A stretch of 44,753 nucleotides of DNA from a virus (taxonomy: Duplodnaviria; Heunggongvirae; Uroviricota; Caudoviricetes): the IMG/VR virus record IMGVR_UViG_2917860307_000001, positions 1 through 44,753 of that record; one strand, 5' to 3'. Within the stretch, counting starts at the first letter, position 1, and each line of letters opens with the position of its first letter. Under the pieces are notes generated by a model. The model made no database searches. It was not told where the DNA came from and worked only from the letters and a program-made list of their open reading frames with translations. Positions 12,387 through 44,753 of this stretch are shown one piece after another. Made by a program: the position numbers and the translations under genes.

Positions 12387-12941
12387 ATGAACCTTGAAGC
12401 CTTACCAAAATATTACTCCCCAAAATCTCCAAAATTGAGCGATGACGCACCGGCGACAGGCTCAGGTGGTTTAACGATTACGGATGTGATGGCTGCGCAG
12501 GGGATGGTGCAGTCGAAAGCACCGCTTGGGTTTGCCTTATTCCTGGCAAAAGTTGGTGTTCAGGATCCTCAATTTGCGATTGAAGGTCTGCTCAATTACG
12601 CGATGGCACTGGATAACCCGACATTGAACAAATTGAGTGAAGAAACCCGGTTACAGATCATCCCTTACCTTGTGAATTTTGCCTTTGCTGATTATTCCAG
12701 GTCTGCGGCAAGTAAGGCTCGCTGTGAGCATTGTGCTGGTACTGGATTTCATAATGTATTGCGCGAAGTGGTGAAACACTCCAGAAGCGGGGAATCTGTT
12801 ATCAAGGAAGAGTGGGTGAAGGAACTATGTCAGCATTGCCATGGTAAGGGAGAAGTCAGCACAGCGTGCAGAGGGTGTAAGGGTAAAGGTATTGTCCTGG
12901 ATGAAAAAAAGAACCCGGCTTCATGGTGTGCCTGTTTATAA
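12387..12941 (+). CDS. Antitermination protein Q (as read, terminates early; see downstream +1-frame fragment)
   Basis: Start MNLEALPKYY (ATG 12387); three CxxCxGxG zinc-finger repeats; position upstream of PR'-like promoter and lysis genes. Confidence 0.6.
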   Translation: MNLEALPKYYSPKSPKLSDDAPATGSGGLTITDVMAAQGMVQSKAPLGFALFLAKVGVQDPQFAIEGLLNYAMALDNPTLNKLSEETRLQIIPYLVNFAFADYSRSAASKARCEHCAGTGFHNVLREVVKHSRSGESVIKEEWVKELCQHCHGKGEVSTACRGCKGKGIVLDEKKNPASWCACL

Positions 12942-13140
12942 GATTTGTGGGCGTTGCAATGGCAACCGGTTTAGCCGTTTACCAACCACACTGGCGCGGC
13001 ATCATGTCCAGAAACTGGTACCGGACCTGACGGATTATCAGTGGTACAAAGGATATGCAGACGTTATTAATAAACTGGTTACAAAGTGCTGGCAGGAAGA
13101 AGCGTATGCTGAATCGCAATTGAGAAAAGTGACAAGATAG
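12901..13140 (+). CDS. Probable C-terminal fragment of antiterminator Q in the +1 frame
   Basis: Overlapping ORF in +1 frame beginning at the A7 run (12904-12910); carries a fourth CxxCxG repeat (CGRCNGNR). Confidence 0.35.
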   Translation: MKKRTRLHGVPVYKICGRCNGNRFSRLPTTLARHHVQKLVPDLTDYQWYKGYADVINKLVTKCWQEEAYAESQLRKVTR

Positions 13141-13242: not shown

Positions 13243-13268
13243 CAAAAACCCGCTGCTGAGCGGTTTTT
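13243..13268 (+). terminator. tR'-like rho-independent terminator
   Basis: AACCCGCT-GCTG-AGCGGTT hairpin (one-base bulge) followed by T7. Confidence 0.55.
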
Positions 13269-13428: not shown

Positions 13429-13827
13429 ATGAAAAAGGTATTAATAGCAGCGATAGGTTTTTGTTTAGTTGGTTGTGCAGGTATGAAATTACCTGAGTAT
13501 TCGCAAGTTAAAGCAAGTCCGTATTATACAGATTGCCGTGCGTTTGCCATGGATGTTTATAAAAATGATGGATACAGCAAAATTGCGAAAACTACTATCC
13601 TTAGCATGGATGATGTGAAGGCTAGATATATTGTGACAGGGTGTGTAGTTGCTATGGGGAAAAACACTGTAGAGGAAATCAAAGCTGATCTCTCTGCTAA
13701 AGGGAGTTCTTTTGGGCTTATCAGTGGAGCTTGTTCTAGTGTGGCATGTCGGGTTGATGTAGAGCAGCAAATGAACGCTTATGTACTTGGTAGTTATTAT
13801 GCTGCAAATAAAAAAATTCCCGGATAA
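13429..13827 (+). CDS. Lipoprotein (moron)
   Basis: Signal peptide with lipobox MKKVLIAAIGFCLVGCAG; markedly low-GC gene flanked by terminators; alternative start at 13420. Confidence 0.6.
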   Translation: MKKVLIAAIGFCLVGCAGMKLPEYSQVKASPYYTDCRAFAMDVYKNDGYSKIAKTTILSMDDVKARYIVTGCVVAMGKNTVEEIKADLSAKGSSFGLISGACSSVACRVDVEQQMNAYVLGSYYAANKKIPG

Positions 13828-13948: not shown

Positions 13949-14069
13949 TACCCGTAAACTTGGTGCAGTACAGTAAACACGCTGGTGGTCGTGAATACTG
14001 ACTTTTTATCTTGCTGGCTTTTTAGACAAGAGTTATTGGTATGTCATGTTAACCAGAAGGGAAAAAGAC

Positions 14070-14273
14070 ATGCTAAAACAGCAAGATATGACAGAAACCG
14101 CCGCCGCAGTCCTTCATTTCTTACCTGCTGACAAGTGGGTAACGCCACGCATGATGACGAGAACTACCGGAGTAAGCGAAGCCCGGTGCCAGTTAATACT
14201 GACTCAGTTAGTTCTGGCGGGTCTGGCGAAGGATAACGGCGGGTACGGGAATAAATTCAGACGCTGCCAGTAA
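14070..14273 (+). CDS. Small putative DNA-binding protein (winged-helix-like)
   Basis: Start MLKQQDMTE (ATG 14070, AAGGGA RBS); 67 aa. Confidence 0.35.
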   Translation: MLKQQDMTETAAAVLHFLPADKWVTPRMMTRTTGVSEARCQLILTQLVLAGLAKDNGGYGNKFRRCQ

Positions 14274-14423
14274 TGGCGGTTTCCTGCTGTGAAAATGGGC
14301 GGCTGGTGGGTGTTGGTAGCACGTGCCAGCCATTCGCTCATGCTTACTGGTCACAAGCGAACCACGGCCCACTGCTTTAGCGCAAAAGCAGAGTGAGCCT
14401 ACCAGAGTTACGCTTACTGATCC

Positions 14424-15476
14424 ATGAAAAATACTGTAAAAATAAACAGTGTTGATTTAATCAACGCTGATTGCCTGCATTTTATTCAGTCCCTGCCTGA
14501 TGATTCCATTGACCTGATTGTTACCGATCCGCCGTACTTCAAGGTGAAACCCAACGGCTGGGACAATCAGTGGAAAGGGGACGAAGATTACCTTAAGTGG
14601 CTGGACCACTGTCTGGCCCAGTTCTGGCGGGTGTTAAAACCTGCCGGAAGCCTTTACCTGTTCTGTGGGCATCGCCTGGCATCTGATATTGAGATCATGA
14701 TGCGTGAACGTTTCAACGTGCTTAACCATATCATCTGGGCGAAGCCGTCCGGACGTTGGAATGGGTGTAATAAAGAAAGTCTGCGCGCATATTTTCCTGC
14801 CACAGAGCGCGTTCTGTTTGCTGAACATTACCAAGGGCCATATCGCGGCAAAAGTGACGGCTATGCGGCAAAAGAAAGGGAACTCAAACAGCACATAATG
14901 GCACCGCTGATATCGTATTTCAGGGATGCTCGTGCCGAACTGGGTATAACGGCAAAACAAATTGCCGAAGCCACAGGTAAGAAAAATATGGTTTCCCACT
15001 GGTTTGGTGCCAGTCAGTGGCAGTTGCCGAATGAGGCTGACTATCGGAAGTTACAGGCACTGTTTTCCCGTATAGCGGCAGAGAAGTTTCAGGAACAACA
15101 ACTGGAACAACCACACCACCAGCTGGTGGCATCTTATGATTCACTGAATCGCAAATATTCTGAATTGCTGGATGAGTTTAAATCTCTCCGGCGCTATTTC
15201 TCCGTATCAGTCTCCGTGCCTTATACCGATGTCTGGATGCATAAACCCGTTCAGTTCTACCCGGGTAAACATCCGTGTGAGAAACCGGCGGATATGCTCA
15301 GGCAAATAATCAATGCCAGTAGTCGACCTGGTGATCTGGTTGCTGATTTTTTTATGGGATCCGGTTCCACAATAAAAGCAGCAATGGCGCTGGGGCGTCG
15401 GGCCTTAGGTGTTGAGCTTGAGTCAGAGCGGTTTAACCAGACAGTGAAAGAGATAAACGAGCTGGTGGGGAAATAA
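14424..15476 (+). CDS. Orphan DNA methyltransferase (N6-adenine/N4-cytosine family, DPPY motif)
   Basis: 350 aa; motif IVTDPPYF near the N-terminus and a C-terminal AdoMet-binding-like region (DFFMGSGST). Confidence 0.8.
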
Positions 15477-15482
15477 TCTGGT

Positions 15483-15506
15483 GGCCACGTCAGGTGGCCT
15501 TTTTAT
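15483..15506 (+). terminator. Rho-independent terminator
   Basis: GGCCAC-GTCAG-GTGGCC hairpin followed by T5. Confidence 0.55.
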
Positions 15507-15543
15507 TTCCATTACACAGCACCCGCATCTGCGAGGTGGGGTT

Positions 15544-15758
15544 ATGAAATCCATGGATAAGTTAACAACGGGTGTCGCCTATGGCACCTCAGCAGGTAGT
15601 GCCGGGTACTGGTTTTACAGTTGCTCGATAAAGTCACGCCCTCACAGTGGGCGGCAATAGGTGTGCTGGGTAGTCTGGTGTTTGGCCTGCTGACGTATCT
15701 GACAAATCTTTATTTCAAGATTAAAGAAGACAAGCGTAAGGCTGCACGGGGAGAGTAA
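15544..15758 (+). pseudogene. Class II holin (S21-type pinholin), frame interrupted at a T4 run (15613-15616)
   Basis: ATG 15544 with GAGGTGG RBS gives [24 protein letters not shown] then a stop; a second frame continues [47 protein letters not shown]; together about 71 aa. Confidence 0.65.
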
Positions 15759-25636: not shown

Positions 25637-26227
25637 ATGAAGGGGCTTGAGAATGCCATCCGCAATCTGAACAGCCTTGATACCCGTATGGTGCCACAGG
25701 CCAGCGCATGGGCGATAAACCGTGTGGCACAGAAAGCGGTCTCGGTTGCCACCCGGCAGGTTGCCGGGAATACCGTTGCGGGAGATAACCAGGTGAAAGG
25801 GATCCCCCTGAAACTGGTACGTCAGCGTGTCCGGGTGTTTAAAGCCAGTCCGTCAGGAAAAATGACGGCCAGGATCCGCGTTAACCGGGGCAATCTGCCC
25901 GCCATCAAACTGAACACAACACGGCGGCGTGCTGGTGAAGGACTGAGAGTGGGAAAATACTTTTTCCGGGGGGCATTTGTTCAGCAACTGGCGAATGGCC
26001 GCTGGCATGTTCTGAGGCGTCTTCCTGAAGCGCGTTTTGCAACAGGGCATGACCATCAGGGCAGGCCAAGAAAAAATCGTCTTCCTGTGGAGGTAGTGAA
26101 AATCCCGCTGTCCGGACCGCTGACACAGGCATTTGAAGATGCCCGCGACCGCATCATTGCTGCGGAAATGCCGAAACAGCTGGGGTATGCACTGAAACAA
26201 CAACTGAGGTTATGGCTGACCCGATGA
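25637..26227 (+). CDS. Minor tail protein Z
   Basis: 196 aa; clear similarity to lambda gpZ (shared segments such as NGRWHV and VVKIP...PLT.AF). Confidence 0.75.
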   Translation: MKGLENAIRNLNSLDTRMVPQASAWAINRVAQKAVSVATRQVAGNTVAGDNQVKGIPLKLVRQRVRVFKASPSGKMTARIRVNRGNLPAIKLNTTRRRAGEGLRVGKYFFRGAFVQQLANGRWHVLRRLPEARFATGHDHQGRPRKNRLPVEVVKIPLSGPLTQAFEDARDRIIAAEMPKQLGYALKQQLRLWLTR

Positions 26228-26625
26228 ACCGACATACACAAATCCGCCAGGCCGTACTGGCACGCCTTCGGGAACAGTGTGGAGACAGCGCCACGTTTTT
26301 TGACGGGCTTCCGGCATTTATTGATGCGCAGGAACTGCCTGCCGTGGCGGTGTGGCTGAGTGATGCTCAGTACACCGGAAAAATGACGGATGAAGATGAC
26401 TGGCAGGCTGTTCTGCATATTGCTGTCTTCATCCGGGCACAGGCACCGGATTCAGAGCTGGATATGTGGATGGAGAGCACCATTTTCCCGGCCCTGAATG
26501 ATGTACCGGCACTTTCCGGACTCATCGACACCCTGATCCCACTCGGTTTTAACTATCAACGTGATAATGAGATGGCCACCTGGGCGATGGCGGAAATCAC
26601 GTACCAGATCACGTACACGAATTAA
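26212..26625 (+). CDS. Minor tail protein U
   Basis: Similarity to lambda gpU (ATFFDG...PAVAV...EYTG...W..LHI.VF..AQ.PDSELD.WMES). Confidence 0.8.
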   Translation: MADPMNRHTQIRQAVLARLREQCGDSATFFDGLPAFIDAQELPAVAVWLSDAQYTGKMTDEDDWQAVLHIAVFIRAQAPDSELDMWMESTIFPALNDVPALSGLIDTLIPLGFNYQRDNEMATWAMAEITYQITYTN

Positions 26626-26635
26626 GGAGGTGGCA

Positions 26636-27379
26636 ATGACCACACCAAATCCACTGGCAAAGACGAAAGGTGCGGGGACGACGTTCTGGATGTATACCGG
26701 CAACGGCGACGCATTTGCGAACCCTTTGTCGGACACTGACTGGCTGCGTCTTGCGATGGTGAAGGATCTGCAACCTGGCGAAATGACCGCTGATGCAGAA
26801 GATGATACTTATCTCGATGATGAAGATGCAGACTGGAAAACGACAACCCAGGGGCAGAAATCAGTCGGTGATACTTCGGCGACGCTGGCCTGGCGTCCGG
26901 GTGACAGCGGGCAGAAAAAACTGGTTCAGTTGTTCGACTCCGGTGAAGTCTGCGCGTTTCGTATCAAATATCCCAACGGTACTGTTGATGTTTTCCGTGG
27001 CTGGCTGAGTTCACTGGGTAAAACCATTGCCTCAAAAGACGTGATGACCCGCACTGTGAAAATCAGCGGTGTGGGGCGTCCGTATCTGGCAGAGGAAGGC
27101 ACTGATACAGTGAGCGTTACCGGGCTGACGGTGGCACCGGCATCTGCCAGTGTAAAAGTGGGAGCAACCACCACGCTGACCTTTACAGTAAAACCTGACG
27201 GAGCCAGTGACAAAGCGATCAGTGTGCATTCGTCAGATCCACAGACTGCCACGGTGACCCTGAACGGGCTTGTAGCCACGGTGAAAGGCGTGAAGCAGGG
27301 CAGTGTCAGCATTGTGGGCATGACCGCTGACGGGAATTTTGTGGCTGTGGCTGCGGTGACTGTCAGCGCCGCAGGTTAA
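26636..27379 (+). CDS. Major tail protein V
   Basis: Start MTTPNPLAKTKGAGTT (AAGGAGGTGG RBS); strong similarity to lambda gpV. Confidence 0.9.
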   Translation: MTTPNPLAKTKGAGTTFWMYTGNGDAFANPLSDTDWLRLAMVKDLQPGEMTADAEDDTYLDDEDADWKTTTQGQKSVGDTSATLAWRPGDSGQKKLVQLFDSGEVCAFRIKYPNGTVDVFRGWLSSLGKTIASKDVMTRTVKISGVGRPYLAEEGTDTVSVTGLTVAPASASVKVGATTTLTFTVKPDGASDKAISVHSSDPQTATVTLNGLVATVKGVKQGSVSIVGMTADGNFVAVAAVTVSAAG

Positions 27380-27399
27380 CAGGACGATACTCATCATTT

Positions 27400-27425
27400 G
27401 CCCCGGTTATCCGGGGCTTTTTTTG
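27400..27425 (+). terminator. Hairpin/T-run after major tail gene
   Basis: GCCCCGG-TTAT-CCGGGGC followed by T7. Confidence 0.5.
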
Positions 27426-27440
27426 CAGGTGGAGAACATG

Positions 27441-27827
27441 ATGTTTCTGAAACAGGGCACGTTTAATTATGAAAAACAGTCCGTGGTGCTCAGTGAGCTG
27501 TCCGGGCTGCAGAGAATTGAATATCTGGCGTTTGTTCAGCAGCGAACGGCAAAGTTTGATGCCGGTGAGGGAGAACTGCCGGAGGCTGAACGACAGATTG
27601 CTTTTCTGCGGATGGGGATGGATATCAATGCCTGGCTGGTTTCCCGCTCACTGTGGAATGCGGATCAGTCTAAGGATGTAGAGACGCTTTGCGCATCCGT
27701 TATTACAACATGGTCGTATGATGCCCTGGGTGCGGGGGCGGAGATGGTTCTGTCGCTGAGCGGTATGGGGGCCATTGATAATGCCGGGGATGATGAGCAT
27801 GAGGCGCTGACGCCGGAAAAGTCCTGA
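27441..27827 (+). CDS. Tail assembly chaperone G
   Basis: Start MFLKQGTF; similarity to lambda gpG (TLSELS.LQRIE.L). Confidence 0.8.
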   Translation: MFLKQGTFNYEKQSVVLSELSGLQRIEYLAFVQQRTAKFDAGEGELPEAERQIAFLRMGMDINAWLVSRSLWNADQSKDVETLCASVITTWSYDALGAGAEMVLSLSGMGAIDNAGDDEHEALTPEKS

Positions 27828-28165
27828 CGCGGGAAATGCAGTTTGTCATGCGGCTTGCCCGGGAGTTCCGGCGGGCAGACTGGCGGCGGATGCTGTCGGA
27901 AATGTCGGCCACTGAGCTTGGTGAGTGGGGCGATTATTTCCGGATGCAGAGCTTCAGTGATGTGTGGATGGATGCGCAGTTTGCCTCGCTGAAGGCATTG
28001 ATCGTGAGAATGGTGTCCGGCAGCAGTGATGCTGCGGTGGCTGATTTCAGCCTTTTACCGGAAGAGAACGGGATACCGGAGCGAACGGACGAAGAACTGA
28101 TGCATCTTGGGGAAGGTATTTCCGGAGGTGTGCGTTATGGACCAGATAGCCAACCTGGTCATTGA
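27803..28165 (+). CDS. gpT-like extension expressed as G-T fusion by programmed -1 frameshift
   Basis: -1 frame open from 27803 with no start codon of its own until 27836; overlaps the 3' end of G; candidate slip site CCGGAAAAG at 27813-27821. Confidence 0.65.
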   Translation, partial: GADAGKVLTREMQFVMRLAREFRRADWRRMLSEMSATELGEWGDYFRMQSFSDVWMDAQFASLKALIVRMVSGSSDAAVADFSLLPEENGIPERTDEELMHLGEGISGGVRYGPDSQPGH

Positions 28166-29798
28166 TTTGGGGATTGATGCGGCAGAGTTTAAAAATGAAA
28201 TCCCCCGTATCAAAAACCTTCTGAATGGTGCAGCCAGCGATGCAGAACGGTCTTCTGCCCGTATGCAGCGTTTTATGGAGCGTCAGACTCAGGCCGCCCG
28301 GCAGACAACGCAGGCGGCGTCTTCGGCTGCAACAGCCGCATCCGTCCATGCGCAGACGGTGGAGAAGAACGCACAGGCTCATGAACGCATGGCCCGCGAG
28401 GTGGAGAAAACCCGCCAGCGCATGGAGGCGCTGAGCCAGAAAATGCGCGAGGAACAGGCGCAGGCCATGGCTCTGGCGGAGGCTCAGGATAAAGCGGCTG
28501 CTGCGTTTTATCGTCAGATTGACAGTGTGAAACAGGCCAGTGCGGGGCTGCAGGAATTACAGCGTATTCAGCAGCAGATCCGACAGGCCAGAAACAGTGG
28601 CGGGATTGGTCAGCAGGATTATCTGGCGCTGATTTCTGAGGTTACGGCGAAAACCCGTGTTCTTACACAGGCTGAGGAAGAGGCTACCCGACAGAAAGTG
28701 GCGTTTATCCGTCAGCTTAAAGAGCAGGCAACCCGCCAGAATCTTTCTTCTTCTGAGTTGCTTCGTGCTAAGGCTGCCCAGCTGGGGGTAAGCAGTGCTG
28801 CAGAAGTGTATATCCGCAAAATGGAGCAGGCAGGAAAAGCCACGCATTCGCTGGGGCTGAAAAGTGCAGCGGCCCGTCAGGAGATAGGCGTTCTGATAGG
28901 TGAACTGGCCCGCGGAAATTTAGGTGCGCTGAGGGGATCCGGAATAACGCTGGCTAACCGTGCCGGGTGGATAGACACATTGATGTCACCGAAAGGCATG
29001 ATGCTTGGCGGGGTTATTGGCGGTATTGCCGCGGCTGTCTATGGTCTGGGTAAAGCCTGGTATGACGGTCAGAAGGAGGGGGAAGAATTTAACCGCCAGC
29101 TGTCGCTGACGGGGCATTATGCCGGAGTCACTGCCGGGCAGCTGTGGACGCTCAGTCGTGCTATTTCCGGGAATGGTATCACGCAACATGCTGCAGCCGG
29201 TGCGCTGGCTCAGGTGGTGGGGAGTGGTGCATTTCGTGGAAACGATATCGGTATGGTGGCGAGAGCTGCCGCACAGATGGAGCGATCGGTTGGCCAGTCG
29301 GTCAGCGATACCATAAGTCAGTTTAAGCGGCTGAAGGATGATCCTGTAAATGCCGCGAAGGCTCTGGACAATGAGCTGCATTTTCTTACTGCCACTCAGC
29401 TTGAGCAGATACGCGTCCTTGGGGAACAGGGGCGGTCCAGTGATGCGGCACGGATAGCCATGTCTGCACTGGCAGAGGAAACCGGTCGGCGTACTGCGGA
29501 TATTGATAATAACCTCAATGCGCTGGGCAGTACGCTGAAGTATCTGTCTGATTTATGGAGTCGTTTCTGGGATGCGGCCATGAATATTGGTCGTGAAGAC
29601 TCGCTGGATGAACAGATTTCCGCTTTACAGGAGAAAGTGTCGCGGGCGAAAAGACTCCCCTGGACGGCATCATCTTCTCAGGTTGAGTACGATCAGCAGC
29701 GTCTTAACGAGCTTCAGGAGAAAAAAACGCCAGAAGGATTTGCAGGATGCAAAAGAGCAGGCAGAGCGGAATTATCAGGAGCAACAGAAACGCCGTAA
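28137..29798 (+). CDS. Tail tape measure protein gpH-like, N-terminal part (reading frame interrupted near 29721-29810)
   Basis: Start MDQIANLVIDLG (GGAGGTG RBS) parallels lambda gpH N-terminus; ORF ends 29798 in what should be mid-protein. Confidence 0.75.
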   Translation: MDQIANLVIDLGIDAAEFKNEIPRIKNLLNGAASDAERSSARMQRFMERQTQAARQTTQAASSAATAASVHAQTVEKNAQAHERMAREVEKTRQRMEALSQKMREEQAQAMALAEAQDKAAAAFYRQIDSVKQASAGLQELQRIQQQIRQARNSGGIGQQDYLALISEVTAKTRVLTQAEEEATRQKVAFIRQLKEQATRQNLSSSELLRAKAAQLGVSSAAEVYIRKMEQAGKATHSLGLKSAAARQEIGVLIGELARGNLGALRGSGITLANRAGWIDTLMSPKGMMLGGVIGGIAAAVYGLGKAWYDGQKEGEEFNRQLSLTGHYAGVTAGQLWTLSRAISGNGITQHAAAGALAQVVGSGAFRGNDIGMVARAAAQMERSVGQSVSDTISQFKRLKDDPVNAAKALDNELHFLTATQLEQIRVLGEQGRSSDAARIAMSALAEETGRRTADIDNNLNALGSTLKYLSDLWSRFWDAAMNIGREDSLDEQISALQEKVSRAKRLPWTASSSQVEYDQQRLNELQEKKTPEGFAGCKRAGRAELSGATETP

Positions 29799-31204
29799 TG
29801 CTGAAAATGCATGCACTGAACCGGATGAATGAAACGGAAGCAGCACGACATCAGCGTGAAATTGCGCGTATTAATGCCATGCAGTACGCCGATCAGGCTG
29901 TCAGGGATGCGGCGATACAACGTGAAAATGAACGTTACGAGAAAGCCCTGGCATCCGGTAAGAAAAAAACACGCGAAACCCGTAATGATGAGGCCACCCG
30001 GTTATTGCTGCAGTACAGTCAGCAACAGGCACAGGTGGAAGGACAGATTGCTGCTGCCAGACAGTCAGCAGGCATTGCCACGGAAAGGATGACAGAAGCG
30101 CATAAACAGCTTCTGGCTCTGCAGCAGCGCATCAGCGACCTGGACGGGAAAAAACTGACGGCAGATGAAAAGAGTGTGCTGGCCCGTAAAGATGAACTGA
30201 TTCAGGCACTGACGCTGCTGGATGTAAAACAGCAGGAGCTTCAGAAACAGACGGCACTCAACGAGCTGAAGAAAAAAACAATTCAGCTGACCAGTCAACT
30301 GACTGAAGAAGAGCGCGCTCAGCGTCAGCAACATGACCTGGATATCGCCACGGTGGGTATGGGTGATCAGCAGCGGCAGCGATATCAGGTACAACTGAGT
30401 CTTCGCCAGAAATACCAGCAACAGCTGGAGCAGTTGAGGCGGGATAGTGAGCAGAAAGGGACATATAACACGGATGACTACAGAAAGGCCGAGCAGGCGC
30501 TGACGGAGAGCCTGAACCGACAACTGAATGAGAATCGCCGTTACTGGCAACAGCTTGAAGTTGTGCAGGGTAACTGGAAAAACGGAGTCCTGCGTGCATT
30601 TCAGGATTTTACCGTGGATGCAGATAATACGGCAGGAACAGCAGAACAGGTGTTCTCGTCAGCCTTCAGCAACATGGGAAATGGCCTGGCAACTTTTGTC
30701 ACTACCGGCAAACTCAATTTCAAATCCTTCACCTCTTCTGTGCTGTCAGATATGGCGAAAATCCTGGCGCAGGCAACCATGATGAAATCGATAAAAGGGA
30801 TTGGCAGTGTACTGGGATTTGATCTCAGCAGCCTTTCCCTGAATGCCAATGGGGGGATTTATCAGTCTGCTGATTTGAGTCGCTACAGTGGCACGGTGGT
30901 TAACCGTCCGACGTTTTTTGCTTTTGCAAAAGGCGCGGGTGTGATGGGGGAAGCTGGACCTGAAGCCATTCTGCCACTGCGTCGTGGTGCTGACGGTAAG
31001 CTGGGGGTTGTGGCGGATATTGGTGGTTCAGGTATGGCGATGTTTGCCCCGCAGTACAACATCGAGATCAATAACGATGGCACGAACGGGCAGATAGGTC
31101 CGGCTGCCCTGAAGGTGGTTTATGACCTTGGGAAAAAAGCGGCAGCGGACTTTATGCAACAGCAGGCCCGTGATGGTGGTCGGTTAAGTGGAGCATATCG
31201 GTAA
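29747..31204 (+). CDS. Tail tape measure protein gpH-like, C-terminal part
   Basis: Coiled-coil-rich sequence ending ...EINNDGTNGQIGPAALKVVYDLGKKAAADFMQQQARDGGRLSGAYR, matching the lambda gpH C-terminus. Confidence 0.75.
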   Translation: MQKSRQSGIIRSNRNAVMLKMHALNRMNETEAARHQREIARINAMQYADQAVRDAAIQRENERYEKALASGKKKTRETRNDEATRLLLQYSQQQAQVEGQIAAARQSAGIATERMTEAHKQLLALQQRISDLDGKKLTADEKSVLARKDELIQALTLLDVKQQELQKQTALNELKKKTIQLTSQLTEEERAQRQQHDLDIATVGMGDQQRQRYQVQLSLRQKYQQQLEQLRRDSEQKGTYNTDDYRKAEQALTESLNRQLNENRRYWQQLEVVQGNWKNGVLRAFQDFTVDADNTAGTAEQVFSSAFSNMGNGLATFVTTGKLNFKSFTSSVLSDMAKILAQATMMKSIKGIGSVLGFDLSSLSLNANGGIYQSADLSRYSGTVVNRPTFFAFAKGAGVMGEAGPEAILPLRRGADGKLGVVADIGGSGMAMFAPQYNIEINNDGTNGQIGPAALKVVYDLGKKAAADFMQQQARDGGRLSGAYR

Positions 31205-31533
31205 TGGAGACGTTTCACTGGAAAGTGCGCCCGGATATGAATGTGGTATCAGAGCCGAAAGTGGTGACAGTGAAGCTGGGCGATGGTTATGAACAGCGTC
31301 GTGCGGCGGGACTGAATAACCAGTTGTCGACTTACAGCGTGACGATACGTGTTCGTAAATGTGAACACCCATCTTTAAAAGCCTTTCTGGAACGGCACGG
31401 TGGCGTCCGCGCATTTCAGTGGACGCCACCTTATGACTGGAAGCCGATCAGGGTGGTTTGTCGTAAATGGTCGGCAAGCGTGGGGGCGTTGTGGGTAACC
31501 ATAACGGCAGATTTTGAACAGGTCGTGGCATAG
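31204..31533 (+). CDS. Minor tail protein M
   Basis: 109 aa, strong similarity to lambda gpM. Confidence 0.9.
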   Translation: METFHWKVRPDMNVVSEPKVVTVKLGDGYEQRRAAGLNNQLSTYSVTIRVRKCEHPSLKAFLERHGGVRAFQWTPPYDWKPIRVVCRKWSASVGALWVTITADFEQVVA

Positions 31534-31542
31534 GAGGCTCTG

Positions 31543-32241
31543 ATGCAGGATATTCCACAGGAAACACATCATGAGACGACACGCCTCACTCAGTCAGCCC
31601 AGGTGGTGCTCTGGGAAATCGATCTGACAGAGGTCGGTGGTGAACGTTATTTTTTCTGTAATGAGCAGAACGAAAAAGGTGAGCCGGTTACCTGGCAGGG
31701 GCGGCAGTATCAGGCATACCCCATTCAGGGGACGGGATTTGAACTGAACGGCAAGGGCAGTGCTGCCCGTCCGACACTGACGGTTTCTAACCTGCACGGA
31801 ATGGTCACCGGGATGGCGGAAGACCTGCAGAGTCTGGTCGGCGGAACGGTGGTCAGGCGTAAGGTTTACGCCCGTTTTCTGGATGCGGTGAACTTCGTCA
31901 ACGGAAACAGTGACGCCGATCCGGAGCAGGAGGTGATCAGCCGCTGGCGCATCGAGCAGTGCAGCGAACTGAGCGCGGTCAGTGCCTCTTTTGTACTGTC
32001 CACGCCGACGGAAACGGACGGTGCTGTTTTTCCGGGGCGCATCATGCTGGCTAATACCTGCACCTGGACCTATCGCGGTGATGAGTGCGGTTATCACGGT
32101 CCGGCTGTCGCTGATGAATATGACCAGCCGACGTCCGATATCACGAAGGATAAATGCAGCAAATGCCTGAGTGGTTGTAAGTTTCGCAATAACGTCGGCA
32201 ACTTTGGCGGCTTCCTTTCCATTAACAAACTTTCGCAGTAA
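31543..32241 (+). CDS. Minor tail protein L
   Basis: 232 aa, near-identical to lambda gpL as recalled. Confidence 0.9.
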   Translation: MQDIPQETHHETTRLTQSAQVVLWEIDLTEVGGERYFFCNEQNEKGEPVTWQGRQYQAYPIQGTGFELNGKGSAARPTLTVSNLHGMVTGMAEDLQSLVGGTVVRRKVYARFLDAVNFVNGNSDADPEQEVISRWRIEQCSELSAVSASFVLSTPTETDGAVFPGRIMLANTCTWTYRGDECGYHGPAVADEYDQPTSDITKDKCSKCLSGCKFRNNVGNFGGFLSINKLSQ

Positions 32242-32245
32242 TCCC

Positions 32246-32989
32246 ATGACACAGACAGAATCAGCGATTCTGGCGCACGCCCGGCGATGTGCGCCAGCGG
32301 AGTCGTGCGGCTTCGTGGTGAGAACGCCGGAGGGGGAAAGATATTTTCCCTGCGTGAATATCTCCGGTGAGCCGGAGGCGTATTTCCGGATGTCGCCGGA
32401 GGACTGGCTGCGGGCAGAGATGCAGGGTGAGATTGTGGCGCTGGTCCACAGCCACCCCGGTGGTCTGCCCTGGCTGAGTGAGGCTGACAGGCGGCTGCAG
32501 GTGCAGAGCGATTTGCCTTGGTGGCTGGTCTGCCGGGGTGAGATTCATAAATTCCGCTGTGTGCCGCATCTGACCGGGCGGCGCTTTGAGCACGGGGTGA
32601 CGGACTGTTACACGCTGTTCCGGGATGCTTATCATCTGGCGGGGATTGAGATGCCGGATTTTCATCGCGGGGATGACTGGTGGCGTCACGGTCAGAATCT
32701 CTATCTGGATAATCTGGAGGCCACAGGGCTGTATCAGGTGCCGTTGTCAGCGGCGCAGCCGGGCGATGTGCTGCTGTGCTGTTTTGGTTCATCGGTGCCG
32801 AATCATGCCGCCATTTACTGTGGTGACGGCGAGCTGCTGCACCATATTCCTGAACAACTGAGCAAACGAGAGAGGTATACCGACAAATGGCAGCGACGCA
32901 CACACTCCCTCTGGCGTCACCGGGCATGGCACGCATCTGCCTTTACGGGGATTTGCAACGATTTGGCCGCCGCATCGACCTTCGTGTGA
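32246..32989 (+). CDS. Tail assembly protein K (NlpC/P60 and MPN-like)
   Basis: Start MTQTESAILAHARRCAP; lambda gpK-like. Confidence 0.85.
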   Translation: MTQTESAILAHARRCAPAESCGFVVRTPEGERYFPCVNISGEPEAYFRMSPEDWLRAEMQGEIVALVHSHPGGLPWLSEADRRLQVQSDLPWWLVCRGEIHKFRCVPHLTGRRFEHGVTDCYTLFRDAYHLAGIEMPDFHRGDDWWRHGQNLYLDNLEATGLYQVPLSAAQPGDVLLCCFGSSVPNHAAIYCGDGELLHHIPEQLSKRERYTDKWQRRTHSLWRHRAWHASAFTGICNDLAAASTFV

Positions 32990-33534
32990 AAACGGGGGCC
33001 GAAGCCATCCGGGCGCTGGCCACACAGCTCCCGGCGTTTCGTCAGAAACTGAATGACGGCTGGTATCAGGTGCGCATTGCCGGGCGTGATGCAGGTGAAA
33101 CCGAATTATCTGCCCGTCTTAATGAGCCGCTGGCAAATGGTGCCGTGATCCATATCGTGCCGCGTCTGGCGGGAGCTAAAAGTGGCGGTGTATTTCAGGT
33201 GGTGCTGGGGGCGGCGTTGATTGCGGTGGCATGGTGGAACCCTGTGGGCTGGCTGGGTGCCGCGGCTGTATCGGGCATGTATGCGGCAGGGGCCAGTATG
33301 ATCCTGGGCGGTGTGGCGCAGATGCTGGCACCGAAAGCCAGGACGTCCACGGCAGCCAGTACAGATAACGGCAAACAGAACACCTATTTCTCCTCACTGG
33401 ATAACATGGTTGCTCAGGGCAATGTTTTGCCTGTTCTGTACGGTGAAATGCGTGTGGGGTCGCGGGTGGTTTCTCAGGAGATCAGCACGGCAGACGAAGG
33501 GGACGGTGGTCAGGTTGTGGTGATTGGTCGCTGA
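32887..33534 (+). CDS. Tail assembly protein I
   Basis: 215 aa; N- and C-termini match lambda gpI as recalled; overlaps K as in lambda. Confidence 0.85.
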   Translation: MAATHTLPLASPGMARICLYGDLQRFGRRIDLRVKTGAEAIRALATQLPAFRQKLNDGWYQVRIAGRDAGETELSARLNEPLANGAVIHIVPRLAGAKSGGVFQVVLGAALIAVAWWNPVGWLGAAAVSGMYAAGASMILGGVAQMLAPKARTSTAASTDNGKQNTYFSSLDNMVAQGNVLPVLYGEMRVGSRVVSQEISTADEGDGGQVVVIGR

Positions 33535-33594
33535 TGCAAAATGTTTTATGTGAAACCGCCTCCGGGCGGTTTTGTCGTTTATGGAGCATGACGA

Positions 33595-36500
33595 ATGGGT
33601 AAAGGCAGCAGTAAGGGGCATACCCCGCGAGAAGCGAAGGACAACCTGAAATCCACGCAGTTGCTGAGTGTGATTGATGCCATCAGTGAAGGGCCGATTG
33701 AAGGTCCGGTGGATGGATTAAAAAGCGTGCTGCTGAACAGTACGCCGGTGCTGGACACTGAGGGGAATACCAACATCTCCGGTGTCACAGTGGTGTTCCG
33801 GGCAGGTGAGCAGGAGCAGACTCCGCCGGAGGGATTTGAATCCTCCGGCTCCGAGACGGTGCTGGGTACGGAAGTGAAATATGACACGCCGATCACCCGG
33901 ACCATCACGTCTGCAAATATCGACCGTCTGCGCTTTACCTTCGGTGTGCAGGCACTGGTGGAAACCACCTCAAAGGGGGACAGGAATCCGTCGGAAGTCC
34001 GCCTGCTGGTTCAGATACAACGTAACGGTGGCTGGGTGACGGAAAAAGACATCACCATTAAGGGCAAAACCACCTCGCAGTATCTGGCCTCGGTGGTGGT
34101 GGATAACCTGCCGCCGCGACCGTTCAATATCCGGATGCGCAGGATGACACCGGACAGCACAACAGACCAGCTGCAGAACAAAACGCTCTGGTCGTCATAC
34201 ACCGAAATCATCGATGTGAAACAGTGCTACCCGAACACGGCACTGGTCGGCGTGCAGGTGGATTCGGAGCAGTTCGGCAGCCAGCAGGTGAGCCGTAATT
34301 ATCATCTTCGCGGGCGCATTCTGCAGGTGCCGTCGAACTATAACCCGCAGACGCGGCAATACAGCGGTATCTGGGACGGGACGTTTAAACCGGCATACAG
34401 CAACAACATGGCCTGGTGTCTGTGGGATATGCTGACCCATCCGCGCTACGGCATGGGGAAGCGTCTCGGTGCGGCGGATGTGGACAAATGGGCGCTGTAT
34501 GTCATCGGCCAGAATTGCGACCAGTCGGTGCCGGATGGCTTTGGTGGCACGGAGCCGCGCATCACCTGTAATGCCTACCTGACCACACAGCGTAAGGCGT
34601 GGGATGTTCTCAGTGATTTCTGCTCGGCGATGCGCTGTATGCCGGTATGGAACGGGCAGACGCTGACGTTCGTGCAGGACCGACCGTCGGATAAGGTGTG
34701 GACCTATAACCGCAGTAATGTGGTGATGCCGGATGATGGCGCGCCGTTCCGCTACAGCTTCAGCGCCCTGAAGGACCGCCATAATGCCGTTGAGGTGAAC
34801 TGGATTGACCCGAATAACGGCTGGGAGACGGCGACAGAGCTTGTTGAAGATACGCAGGCCATTCTCCGTTACGGTCGTAACGTCACGAAGATGGATGCCT
34901 TTGGCTGTACCAGCCGGGGGCAGGCACACCGCGCCGGGCTGTGGCTGATTAAAACGGAGCTGCTGGAAACGCAGACCGTGGACTTCAGCGTGGGTGCAGA
35001 AGGGCTTCGCCATGTACCGGGCGATGTCATTGAAATCTGTGATGATGACTATGCGGGTATCAGCATCGGCGGGCGCGTGCTGGCGGTGAACAGCCAGACG
35101 CGGACACTGACGCTCGACCGTGAAATCACGCTGCCATCCTCCGGCACCACGCTGATAAGCCTGGTTGACGGACAGGGGAATCCGGTCAGCGTGGAGGTCC
35201 AGTCCGTCACCGACGGCGTGAAGGTGAAAGTGAGACGGGTTCCTGACGGCGTTGCAGAATACAGCGTGTGGGGGCTGAAGCTGCCGACGCTGCGCCAGCG
35301 CCTGTTCCGCTGCGTGAGTATCCGTGAGAACGATGACGGTACGTATGCCATCACCGCCGTGCAGCATGTGCCGGAGAAAGAAGCCATCGTGGATAACGGG
35401 GCGCACTTTGACGGCGACCAGAGCGGCACGGTGAATGGTGTCACTCCGCCAGCAGTGCAACACCTGACCGCAGAAGTCACCGCAGACAGCGGGGAATACC
35501 AGGTGCTGGCGCGCTGGGATACGCCGAAGGTGGTGAAGGGCGTGAGCTTTATGCTTCGCCTGACCGTGGCAGCGGATGACGGCAGTGAGCGGCTGGTCAG
35601 CACGGCCCGGACGACGGAAACCACATACCGCTTCAGGCAGCTGGCTCTGGGAAATTACAGTCTGACAGTCCGGGCGGTAAATGCGTGGGGGCAGCAGGGC
35701 GATCCGGCGTCGGTATCGTTCCGGATTGCCGCACCGGCAGCGCCATCGCGGATTGAGCTGACGCCGGGTTATTTTCAGATAACCGCCACGCCGCATCTTG
35801 CGGTTTATGATCCGACTGTACAGTTTGAGTTCTGGTTCTCGGAAAAGCGGATTGCGGATATCAGGCAGGTTGAAACCACAGCCCGCTATCTTGGCACGGC
35901 GCTGTACTGGATAGCCGCCAGTATCAATATCAAACCGGGCCATGATTATTATTTTTACGTTCGCAGTGTGAACACCGTCGGCAAATCGACATTCGTGGAG
36001 GCTGTCGGTCGGGCGAGCGATGATGCGGAAGGTTACCTGGATTTTTTCAAAGGCCAGATAACCGAATCCCATCTCGGCAAGGAGCTGCTGGAAAAAGTCG
36101 AGCTGACGGAGGATAACGCCAGCAAACTGGAGGAGTTTTCGAAAGAGTGGAAGGACGCCAACGATAAATGGAATGCCATGTGGGGCGTCAAAATTGAGCA
36201 GACCGAAGACGGCAGGCATTATGTCGCGGGGCTTGGCCTTAGTATGGAGGATACGGAGGAAGGCAAACTGAGCCAGTTCCTGGTTGCCGCTAACCGTATC
36301 GCGTTTATTGACCCGGCAAACGGGAATGAAACGCCGATGTTTGTGGCGCAGGGCAACCAGATATTCATGAACGAAGTGTTCCTGAAGTATCTGACGGCTC
36401 CCACCATTACCAGTGGCGGCAATCCGCCGGTATTTTCCCTGACACCGGACGGGCGGCTGACGGCGAAAAATGCCGATATCAGCGGTAACGTGAATGCGAA

Positions 36501-37724: not shown

Positions 37725-40082
37725 ATGGCAGCAGTAAAAATCTCAGGTGTGCTGAAAGATGGTGCGGGTAAACCAATACAGAACTGCACTATTCAACTGA
37801 AGGCAAAGCGTAACAGCACCACGGTACTGGTGAACACGGTGGCCTCTGAAAATCCGGATGAAGCCGGGCGTTACAGCATGGATGTTGAGTATGGCCAGTA
37901 CAGCGTCATCCTGCTGGTTGAAGGTTTTCCGCCTTCACATGCCGGGACCATTACCGTCTATGAAGGCTCCAGACCAGGTACGCTGAATGATTTTCTCGGT
38001 GCCATGACGGAAGATGATGTCATGCCGGAGGCATTGCGTCGTTTTGAGGCAATGGTGGAAGAAGCGGCACGCAACGCCGAAGCCGCCTCTCAGAGCGCAG
38101 CGGCGGCAAAGAAATCCGAAACTGCAGCGGCATCATCGAAGAACGCGGCGAAAACCTCAGAAACGAATGCAGCTAACAGCGCACAGGCGGCAGCGTCCTC
38201 GCAGACTGCATCGGCAAACTCCGCGACAGCAGCCAAAAAATCAGAAACCAACGCGAAAAACAGTGAGACAGCCGCAAAGACGAGCGAAACCAACGCAAAG
38301 TCCAGCCAGACGGCAGCGAAAACAAGCGAAACGAATGCCAAAGCCAGTGAAACTGCGGCGAAAAGCAGTCAGGATGCAGCAGCCGAAAGCGAGAGTGCTG
38401 CAGCTGGTTCTGCGACTTCAGCAGCTGGATCAGCAACTGCTGCGGCTAACAGCCAGAAAGCCGCGAAGACGAGCGAAACTAACGCAAAGTCCAGCCAGAC
38501 GGCAGCGAAGACCAGCGAAACGAATGCCAAAGCCAGCGAAACTGCGGCGAAAAACAGTCAGGATGCAGCAGCCCAAAGCGAGAGTGCCGCAGCTGGTTCT
38601 GCAACAGCGGCAGCTAATAGCCAAAAAGCTGCAAAAACCAGTGAAACTAACGCAAAGACGAGTGAAACAAAAGCAGCAGCCAGCGAGACAGAAGCAACGT
38701 CAGCCGCAACAAGAGCAGAGAATGCAGCCCGGATTGCAGAAGATGCCGCTGATCCTGCTTCTGTCCCTCCGCTTCCTGATATCTGGCTACCCTTGAATGA
38801 TTCTCTGGAAGCGATAACAGGGTATGCCCCGGGCTATAAAACAATAACCATCGGCAGTGATGAAATAACAATGCCTGTTAATGGCATATGCCAATTTAGC
38901 CGGGCTTCATCTGCAACGTATATTGATAAGTCCGGGCATATTACCGTGGCAGGGAATAACGTTCCTCGTTTTGAAAAATATGGTTTGCTGATAGAGAATC
39001 AGCGAACAAACATGTTCGTAAATAGTTTTAATCCTGATGCCTGGAATAAAAGCGGTGGTATATCTGTAACATCATCAACAGATGAATTTGAGTTTAAATA
39101 TGGACGTTTCACGGTAGGAAGCGATATAGCAGGAACGACAACAGGGAGAAATATATGCACAGTTGCTGGTAACAAAGGCATAGATGTGACTGGCGATGAT
39201 CAGTACAGTAAAGGTCCGTATGTTACCGCGTCGTTCAGGGTAAGAAGTGATCTCAATGTTCGCGCACGTATCCGTTTTGAACGGTATAACTCGGAAGGAT
39301 ACACCTTCCTTTGCGACGCCTATTTGTCATTACAGACCCATGAACTACAAATTACTGGTGGCAATGCCCAGCTATTAACAGCAAACTTTGAAATCGATCC
39401 AGGTAGTGGATGGATATACTTTCAGGCAACACTGAAATGTCTGCCAGAATGGGGAATGGTTGGTACGCAGCTGCAAATTGCAGCCGACAGAGCTGTGGGG
39501 TCTTTTGCAACAGGTGACTGGATAGAAGTAACCACCCCGCAATTCGAGTATGGTGCTTGTGCAACTTCCTTCATCATAACGACAACTGAGCCAGCGACTC
39601 GTGCATCAGATTTATGTAAATTTCCGCTGATGAAAAATATGTATACCATGCCTTTTACGTTCATGGTGGAAGTCCATAAAAACTGGTTTATTTCTCATAA
39701 TGCGGCACCGCGTGTCATTGATTCAGAAAATCACCAGTCCGGAGGCCCATTTATTATGGGGTTTGGTTCTTCTGGAACTATTAGTCAGGACGGTTATTCG
39801 TATTGCGATATAGGCGGGGCTAACCGACGTGTATATGAGTCATGCGGAGTAAGAGATCTTGTTATGGGATTCAGGGTTAAGGCTGACGGCATGACATGCT
39901 CATTTGCAAATAAGCATATAAGCACAGAAACAAAAACAGTATGGAAATATATTCGTGAAGCTGCTGTGATTCGTATCGGGGGACAAACGACGACAGGATT
40001 ACGACACCTTAATGGTCATATAAAAAACCTCCGTTTCTGGAACAGAGCATTGTCAGATACGCAGCTTAAGGAATACGTATAA
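37725..40082 (+). CDS. Side tail fibre protein (lambda Stf-like N-terminus, repetitive shaft, LamG-like C-terminal domain)
   Basis: N-terminus AVKISGVLKDGAGKPIQNCTIQLKAKRNSTTVLVNTV parallels lambda Stf; Ala/Ser/Thr/Lys-rich repeats; C-terminal motif GHIKNLRFWNRALSDTQLKEY typical of LamG-type jelly-roll domains. Confidence 0.75.
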   Translation: MAAVKISGVLKDGAGKPIQNCTIQLKAKRNSTTVLVNTVASENPDEAGRYSMDVEYGQYSVILLVEGFPPSHAGTITVYEGSRPGTLNDFLGAMTEDDVMPEALRRFEAMVEEAARNAEAASQSAAAAKKSETAAASSKNAAKTSETNAANSAQAAASSQTASANSATAAKKSETNAKNSETAAKTSETNAKSSQTAAKTSETNAKASETAAKSSQDAAAESESAAAGSATSAAGSATAAANSQKAAKTSETNAKSSQTAAKTSETNAKASETAAKNSQDAAAQSESAAAGSATAAANSQKAAKTSETNAKTSETKAAASETEATSAATRAENAARIAEDAADPASVPPLPDIWLPLNDSLEAITGYAPGYKTITIGSDEITMPVNGICQFSRASSATYIDKSGHITVAGNNVPRFEKYGLLIENQRTNMFVNSFNPDAWNKSGGISVTSSTDEFEFKYGRFTVGSDIAGTTTGRNICTVAGNKGIDVTGDDQYSKGPYVTASFRVRSDLNVRARIRFERYNSEGYTFLCDAYLSLQTHELQITGGNAQLLTANFEIDPGSGWIYFQATLKCLPEWGMVGTQLQIAADRAVGSFATGDWIEVTTPQFEYGACATSFIITTTEPATRASDLCKFPLMKNMYTMPFTFMVEVHKNWFISHNAAPRVIDSENHQSGGPFIMGFGSSGTISQDGYSYCDIGGANRRVYESCGVRDLVMGFRVKADGMTCSFANKHISTETKTVWKYIREAAVIRIGGQTTTGLRHLNGHIKNLRFWNRALSDTQLKEYV
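38275..38640 (+). repeat. Two tandem imperfect copies of an approx 170-190 bp unit within the tail fibre gene
   Basis: Repeated DNA encoding KTSETNAKSSQTAAKTSETNAKASETAAK(S/N)SQDAAA(E/Q)SESAAAGSAT...; one copy carries an extra 21-nt insert. Confidence 0.6.
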
Positions 40083-42153: not shown

Positions 42154-43251
42154 TCAAGAGGTCTTATTTCTGCTCCTTTGGAGTTCTTCAAAACGATTAT
42201 GTAAAGATTTTGGATACAGTTCGGTATATACCTGCCATAGCACGTTTAATGAACGATGCCCTGTAACCTGGGCGACTTCCTCAATACTAAAACCAGCCTC
42301 AAATAAGCGACTTGCCCCTTCTCTACGCAAATCATGGTATCGCAGATCTTTAATACCTAATTTGCTTCTTACCCTCTGAAATCCTGCGGTAACAGAAGTG
42401 CTGTTGTATGGAAAAATGAATTCAGATTTTTTGGGTTGTCGTTGGACGATATCCCAGGCTTCCCCAAGCAAGGCCACTTTCATATGGTTACCTTCCTTTT
42501 TACGTGGATCTTTCCTGTCTCTTACTAGTATAGATTTTTGTTCCTGGTCGAGATCTTCCCATCGTAACCGGCATACTTCTCCGATTCGCATACAGGACCA
42601 CACAGAAAATTTGAGGATATCAACGAACGGAATTTTTGAGCATTTATGAGTAGATCGTTGTTGAAGGCCTTCAATGAGCATGTCTAGTTCATCAGATGCT
42701 GGTCTACGATTACGACGATTTGATTTACCAATTAAACCAAGTTTAAGTAGATATGGACGAGCGGCTTTTGCTGGGTTTGATGTGTAATTAATTCCGTATA
42801 CAGGTTTGGCTGCATCCAGAACACTGCCAAGATAACTAACATCGTGGCTAACAGTAGCTGGACCTGCACCGGCGTTGTTTCTCAACCTGCAATGTTCTAT
42901 TACGTCATTTTCTGTTAATTCAGATAGTCTGATCGCAGAAATGTCACTATCCATAAGTAGTTCCAGCACATATCTTTTAGTGCGGCCTGCTTTACCTCCT
43001 GCATTTGGATCATTTAAATATTTGTGTAGCAAATCACGGACAGTAAGGCCGTCAATCTCGCTTGATGATGGGATTCCATACAAATCTAGTTCCATCACTT
43101 TCTGTGTACCCCATGTTTTGGCATGAGCATGTTTGGGAAAGGTTTTACTTTCCCTGTAAGTGATGACACCTTTTTCTTTAATAATCACGGTGCAACGATA
43201 GCGTGGTGTGCCATCGGATTTTAGCCGTTTCTCTATGTTATAGTACGCCAT
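42154..43251 (-). CDS. int: Tyrosine integrase (dusA-associated type)
   Basis: 365 aa; C-terminal catalytic-region pattern (R...HDLRR...VTGHRSL...Y); adjacent to and divergent from dusA. Confidence 0.85.
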   Translation of the reverse strand: MAYYNIEKRLKSDGTPRYRCTVIIKEKGVITYRESKTFPKHAHAKTWGTQKVMELDLYGIPSSSEIDGLTVRDLLHKYLNDPNAGGKAGRTKRYVLELLMDSDISAIRLSELTENDVIEHCRLRNNAGAGPATVSHDVSYLGSVLDAAKPVYGINYTSNPAKAARPYLLKLGLIGKSNRRNRRPASDELDMLIEGLQQRSTHKCSKIPFVDILKFSVWSCMRIGEVCRLRWEDLDQEQKSILVRDRKDPRKKEGNHMKVALLGEAWDIVQRQPKKSEFIFPYNSTSVTAGFQRVRSKLGIKDLRYHDLRREGASRLFEAGFSIEEVAQVTGHRSLNVLWQVYTELYPKSLHNRFEELQRSRNKTS

Positions 43252-43339: not shown

Positions 43340-44377
43340 ATGCACGATAATCATGAAACACAAAAAATTAATCAAACCAGCGTGATGCCTGAAAAAACTG
43401 GTGTTTACTGGAATTCTCGGTTTAGCATTGCTCCTATGCTCGACTGGACGGACAGACACTGCCGTTATTTCCTGCGTCTGCTCTCCCGTAATACGCTGCT
43501 CTATACCGAAATGGTGACCACAGGGGCGATTATTCACGGTAAAGGTGATTACCTGGCATACAGTGAAGAAGAGCATCCGGTGGCGTTGCAGTTGGGCGGT
43601 AGCGATCCGGCGGCGCTGGCGCAGTGTGCGAAGCTGGCAGAAGCGCGCGGATATGATGAGATCAACCTGAATGTTGGCTGCCCGTCAGACCGGGTACAGA
43701 ACGGCATGTTTGGCGCGTGCCTGATGGGGAATGCGCAACTGGTGGCTGACTGCGTAAAAGCGATGCGCGACGTAGTGTCGATTCCAGTGACGGTGAAAAC
43801 GCGTATTGGCATTGACGACCAGGACAGCTATGAATTTCTCTGTGATTTTATCGACACTGTTTCCGGCAAAGGCGAATGCGAGATGTTTATTATCCATGCG
43901 CGCAAAGCCTGGCTTTCTGGTTTAAGTCCGAAAGAAAACCGTGAGATCCCGCCGCTCGATTACCCGCGTGTCTATCAACTGAAGCGTGATTTCCCGCATC
44001 TGACTATGTCGATTAACGGCGGCATCAAGTCACTGGAAGAGGCTAAAGCACACCTGCAACATATGGATGGCGTGATGGTCGGGCGTGAAGCGTATCAAAA
44101 CCCAGGCATTCTGGCGGCGGTGGATCGAGAGATATTTGGTTCCTCGGATACCGATGCCGATCCGGTGGCGGTGGTACGAGCTATGTATCCGTACATTGAG
44201 CGTGAACTCAGCCAGGGGACGTATCTCGGTCATATCACCCGGCATATGCTGGGGCTGTTCCAGGGGATTCCTGGTGCGCGGCAGTGGCGGCGGTATTTAA
44301 GTGAAAATGCCCATAAAGCGGGCGCTGACATTAACGTGCTGGAACATGCGCTCAAACTGGTAGCGGATAAGCGTTAA
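43340..44377 (+). CDS. dusA: tRNA-dihydrouridine synthase A
   Basis: 345 aa; conserved [17 protein letters not shown]... DusA sequence; first approx 30 residues look prophage-derived. Confidence 0.9.
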
Positions 44378-44459
44378 TTTTTCACCACAAAGTAGTCAAA
44401 TTCACCACGCCCTGCGCTTCGACGCGGGGCGTTTTGTTGATAAATCAATATGTTATTTC

Positions 44460-44476
44460 TGGCATGATTCTTGTAA
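44460..44476 (+). promoter_or_regulatory. Sigma-54 promoter of pspG
   Basis: TGGCAT-N5-TTGT matching the -24/-12 consensus TGGCAC-N5-TTGC, about 35 nt upstream of the pspG start. Confidence 0.55.
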
Positions 44477-44510
44477 AGCCAGCAAGAGATTTCATTTTTG
44501 GGAGAACATC

Positions 44511-44753
44511 ATGCTGGAACTACTTTTTGTGATTGGCTTTTTTGTCATGTTGATGGTCACCGGCGTTTCATTGCTGGGCATTATCGCTGCGCTGGTTGTG
44601 GCGACGGCCATTATGTTCCTCGGTGGGATGCTGGCATTGATGATTAAGTTGCTGCCGTGGCTGCTGTTGGCGATTGCGGTAGTGTGGGTGATCAAGGCGA
44701 TTAAAGCGCCAAAAGTGCCTAAATATCAGCGTTATGACCGCTGGCGTTACTAA
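44511..44753 (+). CDS. pspG: Phage shock protein G
   Basis: 80-aa small hydrophobic protein ending KAPKVPKYQRYDRWRY; located downstream of dusA as in E. coli. Confidence 0.85.
   Translation: MLELLFVIGFFVMLMVTGVSLLGIIAALVVATAIMFLGGMLALMIKLLPWLLLAIAVVWVIKAIKAPKVPKYQRYDRWRY

Follow-up and report, generated by a model that had tools for sequence, protein, structure and literature searches.

Two private adenines that split a lambda-type tail tape measure gene in an Escherichia prophage are very probably artefacts of the draft assembly

The prophage studied here is IMG/VR virus record IMGVR_UViG_2917860307_000001 (Caudoviricetes), of which the whole 44,753-nucleotide (nt) stretch, positions 1 to 44,753 on one strand, was analysed and is referred to below as the window. 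It carries a tail tape measure gene at 28137-31204, homologous to gpH of phage lambda, and we confirmed that this gene as deposited reads as broken, in three reading frames. The break comes from two extra A's, one in a run at 29721-29727 and one at 29811. In our assessment both are, with a probability of about 0.9, sequencing or consensus errors of the draft assembly from which the window was taken, rather than mutations in the bacterium. The parts of the gene are as follows (plus strand throughout; lengths of open reading frames (ORFs) and proteins in amino acids (aa)).

28137-31204, plus strand: tail tape measure gene of lambda type, homologous to gpH; the deposited form has 3068 nt, and the form without the two extra A's has 3066 nt (1021 aa).
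28137-29798, plus strand: N-terminal ORF of the deposited form, 553 aa from the ATG at 28137, drawn from the ORF list, the translation and a Pfam TMP_2 match (residues 228-426).
29721-29727, plus strand: A7 run holding the first extra base; A6 in every relative examined.
29728-29810, plus strand: segment between both insertions, with the true protein in the third frame (ORF 29587-29832): RQKDLQDAKEQAERNYQEQQKRRNAEN.
29747-31204, plus strand: C-terminal ORF of the deposited form, 485 aa, drawn from the ORF list, tblastn and Pfam matches to TMP_4 and Tape_meas_lam_C.
29811-29811, plus strand: second extra base, an A giving GC[A]TGC vs. GCTGC, outside any homopolymer and outside the A4 run at 29804-29807.

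A sequence-only reading of the window had described the gene as two ORFs in different frames (one ending at 29798, the other starting from 29747), and both are evident in the ORF list and in the raw sequence. The N-terminal ORF can start at ATG 28137 or at an upstream TTG at 28107 and stops at 29796-29798, and its final 25 codons, which lie past the A7 run, are out of frame. The initial 21 codons of the C-terminal ORF are likewise out of frame; the true frame is back from 29812, and the tblastn match to residues 559-1021, at 100% identity, begins at 29813. The segment between the two insertions is placed in the third frame by tblastn as well, and the third-frame peptide that the sequence-only reading had judged the most tape-measure-like corresponds exactly to residues 531-557 of the repaired protein. 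The frames along the gene are thus 0, +1 and +2, which implies two net +1 shifts between its start and its end. One continuous frame is absent in the deposited sequence and present in the clonal read set SRR8835203, described below.

Global alignment of positions 28107-31204 (3098 nt) to the corresponding regions of phages PhiR47_1 and mEp460 and of the Escherichia coli PEC41 prophage gave exactly two indels, both of them the extra A's, and no substitution absent from both PhiR47_1 and PEC41. Compared to PhiR47_1, the gene differs by the two A's and one synonymous G/A difference at 29778. When both A's are deleted, the product is a 1021-aa protein, in line with the length of about 1020 aa anticipated from the sequence, which matches the tape measure protein of PhiR47_1 (XSB42847.1) at 100% identity; across the affected segment the repaired protein reads ...LQEKKRQKDLQDAKEQAERNYQEQQKRRNAENAALNRM..., the same as in PhiR47_1. 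The sequence-only reading had proposed one or two single-base indels within 29721-29810, in the A7 and A4 runs. There are two, and the first is in the A7 run as proposed, whereas the second, at 29811, falls one base past that interval and outside the A4 run. A second indel within the A4 run (29804-29807) is ruled out, as the AAAA is unchanged in the window and in all relatives.

The gene belongs to the mEp460/cdtI/PhiR47_1 subtype of lambda-type tail tape measure genes. Pfam matches above the gathering thresholds were obtained for the N-terminal ORF (TMP_2, 169 bits) and for the C-terminal ORF (TMP_4, 62.6 bits; Tape_meas_lam_C, 80.2 bits), and all three domains are present on the intact 1021-aa copy of the sister read set. 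Comparison by BLASTP to lambda gpH (AAA96548.1, 853 aa) yielded 25% identity over 778 aa (E = 4e-49). These searches bear out the lambda-like N and C termini suggested earlier: the N-terminal 55 aa are 33% identical to those of gpH, a C-terminal motif (...INNDGTNGQIGPAALK...RDGG...) is almost the same in both, and the Tape_meas_lam_C domain and the gene order are common to both, whereas the coiled-coil middle is divergent and the protein here is 168 aa longer. By the ruler mechanism, a tape measure protein longer than gpH would imply a proportionally longer tail.

The window and the annotated relatives share the gene order V, G, T, H, M, L, K, I, J, and the gene, flanked by the G/T chaperone genes on one side and by the tail-tip genes M, L, K, I and J on the other, occupies the same place in this tail module as in the lambdoid phages of the PhiR47_1, mEp460 and cdtI type (DNA identity of 99.9% to PhiR47_1 and 99.0% to mEp460). 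A megablast search with positions 28107-31204 returned full-length matches in 17 phage records and in more than 1,800 E. coli genomes, with identities of up to 99.9%, and in all top matches listed the 3098 query bases pair with 3096 bases of the record. PhiR47_1, mEp460 and the PEC41 prophage each have a single annotated tape measure coding sequence (CDS) of 3066 nt (1021 aa). Two separate genes at this place in related phages, which would speak for a natural division of the gene, were not seen; the annotated relatives inspected have one 3066-nt CDS (the phage record H9, which lists its tape measure annotation twice, is outside this set). A tape measure protein naturally split in two is accordingly very improbable, as the two ORFs of this record are all that favours it, against the single 3066-nt CDS of every annotated relative inspected, the one 1021-aa gene of SRR8835203, and the single gene (3096 nt vs. 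the 3098-nt query) of the top phage and E. coli matches listed.

Exact matches to the J, DusA and V proteins of the window led to the NCBI assembly GCA_004745355.1. The window is identical to its contig PDIF01000060.1 (100% identity over 21,159 nt, no gaps), and in this contig no protein is called between T and M. The right end of the window (43340-44753) is bacterial dusA-pspG sequence with an identity of only about 92.7% to each of 5,426 E. coli genomes, which indicates that the host is a non-coli Escherichia and is consistent with Escherichia cryptic clade II. The accession PDIF00000000 belongs to Escherichia cryptic clade II strain E2748 (PMC6639607), the draft of which was assembled with MIRA and SPAdes from Ion Torrent data only (single-end reads of 35-400 nt, 45x coverage; PMC6639607). 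A follow-up paper of 2020 (PMC7716201) mentions neither sequencing platforms nor strain E2748.

Two independent assemblies, both from the Logan collection and found through the same protein look-ups, bear directly on the two A's. In the assembly of SRR8835203, contig L089 aligns to window positions 25646-35339 with no substitutions over 9,691 nt, and it also carries the substitutions at 27106 and 32572 that are otherwise private to the window. The alignment has exactly three gaps of 1 nt each, all of them bases missing from L089: a T (27418) and two A's (29721 and 29811). The tape measure gene of this prophage copy in SRR8835203 is the intact 3066-nt, 1021-aa gene, equal base for base to the window gene minus the two A's. 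The second set of contigs, from SRR6148327, aligns with about 32 kb of the window without a mismatch and has a deletion at 41630 in common with it, and from these two observations we infer that SRR6148327 is the sequencing run of E2748 itself. Two of its contigs meet at the tape measure gene: L090 ends with ...GGAGAAAAAA (window 29726) and L081 starts with AAAAAACGCC (window 29722), so that both break inside the A run 29721-29727. L090 has T6 at 27418, and L081 has no A at 29811. L081 has indel errors of its own (T5 vs. T6 at 30914, and GTAC vs. GTTAC at 37871), at which the window agrees with the relatives. Two assemblies of seemingly one read set thus differ only at single-base indels, and the assembly graph breaks exactly at the A run.

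The view that a broken gene would block tail assembly is unsupported, given that the gene is intact in SRR8835203, that SRR6148327 does not have the A at 29811, and that the Ion Torrent-only draft has similar indels elsewhere. An uninterrupted frame on resequencing, the observation that would overturn the reading of a broken gene, is largely what the two read sets give (an intact gene in SRR8835203 and no A at 29811 in SRR6148327), the A7 run being the one site at which the SRR6148327 contigs break.

We then asked whether either insertion occurs in any other sequence. A 161-nt query spanning both sites matched 1,828 E. coli records, none of them at 99% identity or above, and the top E. coli matches listed are 98.8% identical and have 159 nt in the record. 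Exact pattern searches of viral, genome and metagenome contig collections found no match to the A7 form and none to the GCATGC form, whereas the A6 form was found in 72 viral contigs. In the aligned relatives, the run at 29721-29727 is A6 in 77 of 77 and the A at 29811 is missing from 75 of 75. As 72 IMG/VR loci among the 77 relatives were fetched by the A6 pattern itself, they are not independent at the first site, for which the E. coli search is the unbiased panel. Relative to about 75 aligned relatives, there are no private substitutions in the gene and two (27106 and 32572) in the surrounding 7 kb, which also contain a third private insertion (T7 vs. T6 at 27418). Six proteins that the two broken ORFs could encode have no exact match among about 15 billion proteins, which indicates that the broken form has not been called independently anywhere.

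Ion Torrent sequencing is prone to miscalling the length of homopolymers, and similar single-base changes are spread over the prophage and its host flank. PhiR47_1 and three E. coli prophages served as the reference for calling private indels. In the gene for the antiterminator Q (about 12387-13137), the run at 12904-12910 is A7 vs. A6 in 10 of 10 relatives; this difference, probably the same Ion Torrent artefact, divides the 250-aa antitermination protein between two frames. A further A7 vs. A6 difference lies at 13810-13816, near the end of a 141-aa ORF. In the sister assembly GCA_005781125.1, which over 3,755 nt shows 1 substitution and 3 indels relative to the window, both the Q gene and the 141-aa gene are intact. 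The holin gene S/EssD (15544-15755) has T4 at about 15613 vs. T5 in 5 of 5 aligned relatives, a change that frameshifts the 71-aa holin, and no protein is called in this region of the NCBI record. A T is missing at 9102 in a PerC-like gene, the stretch after V that resembles a terminator has T7 vs. T6 (27418-27424), and a C is missing at 41630 in a small ORF, the last of these deletions being present in the SRR6148327 Logan contig and not in SRR8835203. At 13262, GG stands in place of GGG, again a private single-base indel. Among the 60 runs of at least six identical bases in the window, four 7-mers are 6-mers in every relative.

The same kind of difference continues beyond the right end of the window. 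The host gene yjbQ (at 17996 of contig L082) has T7 in the deposited assembly vs. T6, and the host gene aphA (at 9036 of contig L087) has A9 in the SRR6148327 Logan contig vs. A7, run-length differences that come without substitutions and thus point to indel noise genome-wide. Across 10-12.8 kb of host flank there are no substitutions among three sequences and three more indel sites. In the window, the comparisons between clonal sisters give about nine distinct indel sites and one substitution, and a ratio of indels to substitutions of about 9:1 over prophage, intergenic and housekeeping DNA argues for platform error, not mutation. This pattern resembles the errors of Ion Torrent and 454 drafts, which PGAP reports as 'frameshifted' pseudogenes, in its private +1 and -1 changes (mostly in runs of 5-7 bases), in its spread over prophage and housekeeping genes, in the absence of substitutions, and in the lack of reproducibility between assemblers and read sets. 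It differs from the typical errors of these platforms in that the lesions at 29811, 9102 and 41630 are not in long homopolymers.

Taken together, these observations favour the following account. Errors of Ion Torrent base calling and consensus would have put a spurious A into the run at 29721-29727 (A6 to A7) and another at 29811, and the real DNA of E2748 would most likely encode a 1021-aa ruler protein identical to that of PhiR47_1, with nothing special at the site. We observed directly the identity of window and contig, the platform, the positions of the insertions, their privacy to this record and, the A run in SRR6148327 excepted, their absence from the independent assemblies; the A7 call is likely to be an error on the pattern of the other 6-to-7 overcalls. 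Several points weigh against this account. The length of the A run in SRR6148327 is not directly visible, as the contigs break there; the link between SRR6148327 and E2748 comes from sequence matching and not from metadata; and SRR8835203 may be a separate clonal isolate, in which case its intact gene is compatible with a very recent mutation in E2748. In addition, the insertion at 29811 lies outside a homopolymer and is a less typical Ion Torrent error, and the deletion at 41630 is present in both assemblies linked to E2748, which means that not every indel is merely specific to one assembler.

A rival account takes the frameshift as real: slippage in the A run would have inactivated the gene very recently in E2748, with or without the second insertion, leaving the prophage unable to build tails and at the start of decay. 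Runs of the A6 type are naturally prone to slippage, the SRR6148327 contigs break at the A7 run and do not contradict it directly, the Q, holin and PerC-like genes are also frameshifted, as they would be in a decaying prophage, and the 41630 deletion recurs in the SRR6148327 Logan contig. We nevertheless consider this unlikely. The gene has no private substitution, and clonal sisters differ by about nine indel sites vs. one substitution, a spectrum opposite to that of natural mutation; the same 6-to-7 overcall is found at the intergenic terminator (27418) and in the host gene yjbQ, where independent assemblies contradict it; and the second insertion, at 29811, is likewise contradicted, here by the SRR6148327 assembly. 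Moreover, the prophage has no deletions or insertion sequence (IS) insertions, all of its structural proteins are of full length, with 99-100% identity to the PhiR47_1 proteins, and the only platform used was Ion Torrent. That at least the A7 insertion is real in E2748, either through a very recent slippage inactivating the tail ruler or in a culture heterogeneous for A6 and A7, is similarly improbable.

Programmed recoding, in which ribosomal +1 or transcriptional slippage on the A7 run would restore the frame and yield a full-length and a truncated tape measure protein, has two points in its favour: read from the sequence, the lysine transfer RNA (tRNA-Lys) would pair again without mismatch after a +1 shift on AAA AAA A and so be in the correct frame, and programmed frameshifting is used by nearby tail genes (G/GT). 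Such sites are conserved, however, whereas the A7 is private, occurring in none of the 1,828 E. coli records and in none of the three contig collections by exact match (vs. 72 matches for A6). A second shift would be required at 29811, where GCATGC is no slippery sequence; failing that shift, translation in the frame reached at the A run would stop at the TGA at 29830-29832. The ORF is moreover simply uninterrupted in the clonal read set SRR8835203, and we regard recoding as highly improbable. The two extra A's are best read as errors of the draft.

Several other features of the prophage were noted. At the end of G (27813-27836) the sequence reads CCG GAA AAG TCC TGA, and a -1 slip on A-AAG would lead into the T frame (GTC CTG ACG CGG GAA ATG...) and give the expected G-T fusion chaperone. 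The slippery heptamer of lambda G/GT, GGGAAAG, is absent at the end of G, and the slip site here appears to be G GAA AAG. The prophage sits at the 5' end of dusA, which is intact (345 aa, 43340-44377); its integrase lies at 42154-43251, and its left end (1-1042) carries a toxin-antitoxin pair of the PanA/PanT type (Panacea domain). In the side tail fibre gene stf, the 168-nt segments 38259-38426 and 38448-38615 are each about 91% identical to the PhiR47_1 counterpart of the other, a cross-identity that points to an internal tandem duplication in stf. Where PhiR47_1 has four tRNA genes, the prophage has instead, within 13988-15527, a gene for a 350-aa N6/N4 DNA methyltransferase (14424-15473). 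This methyltransferase is extremely common in E. coli prophages, the exact protein being found in 22,622 blocks of the collection, and its exact look-up returned only unrelated E. coli prophages and no sister-strain contigs covering the holin and Q genes.

For this record, and probably throughout the Ion Torrent-only drafts of cryptic clade II, single-base frameshifts need to be checked against the reads, and unchecked frameshifts in such drafts should not be taken as pseudogenes, defective prophages or recoding sites. If the A7 were real after all, the first step of domestication would have been caught in an otherwise intact, dusA-integrated lambdoid prophage of a non-coli Escherichia. Once corrected, however, the prophage looks complete, and it may well be inducible, given the 99-100% identity between its structural proteins and those of PhiR47_1, an isolated phage.

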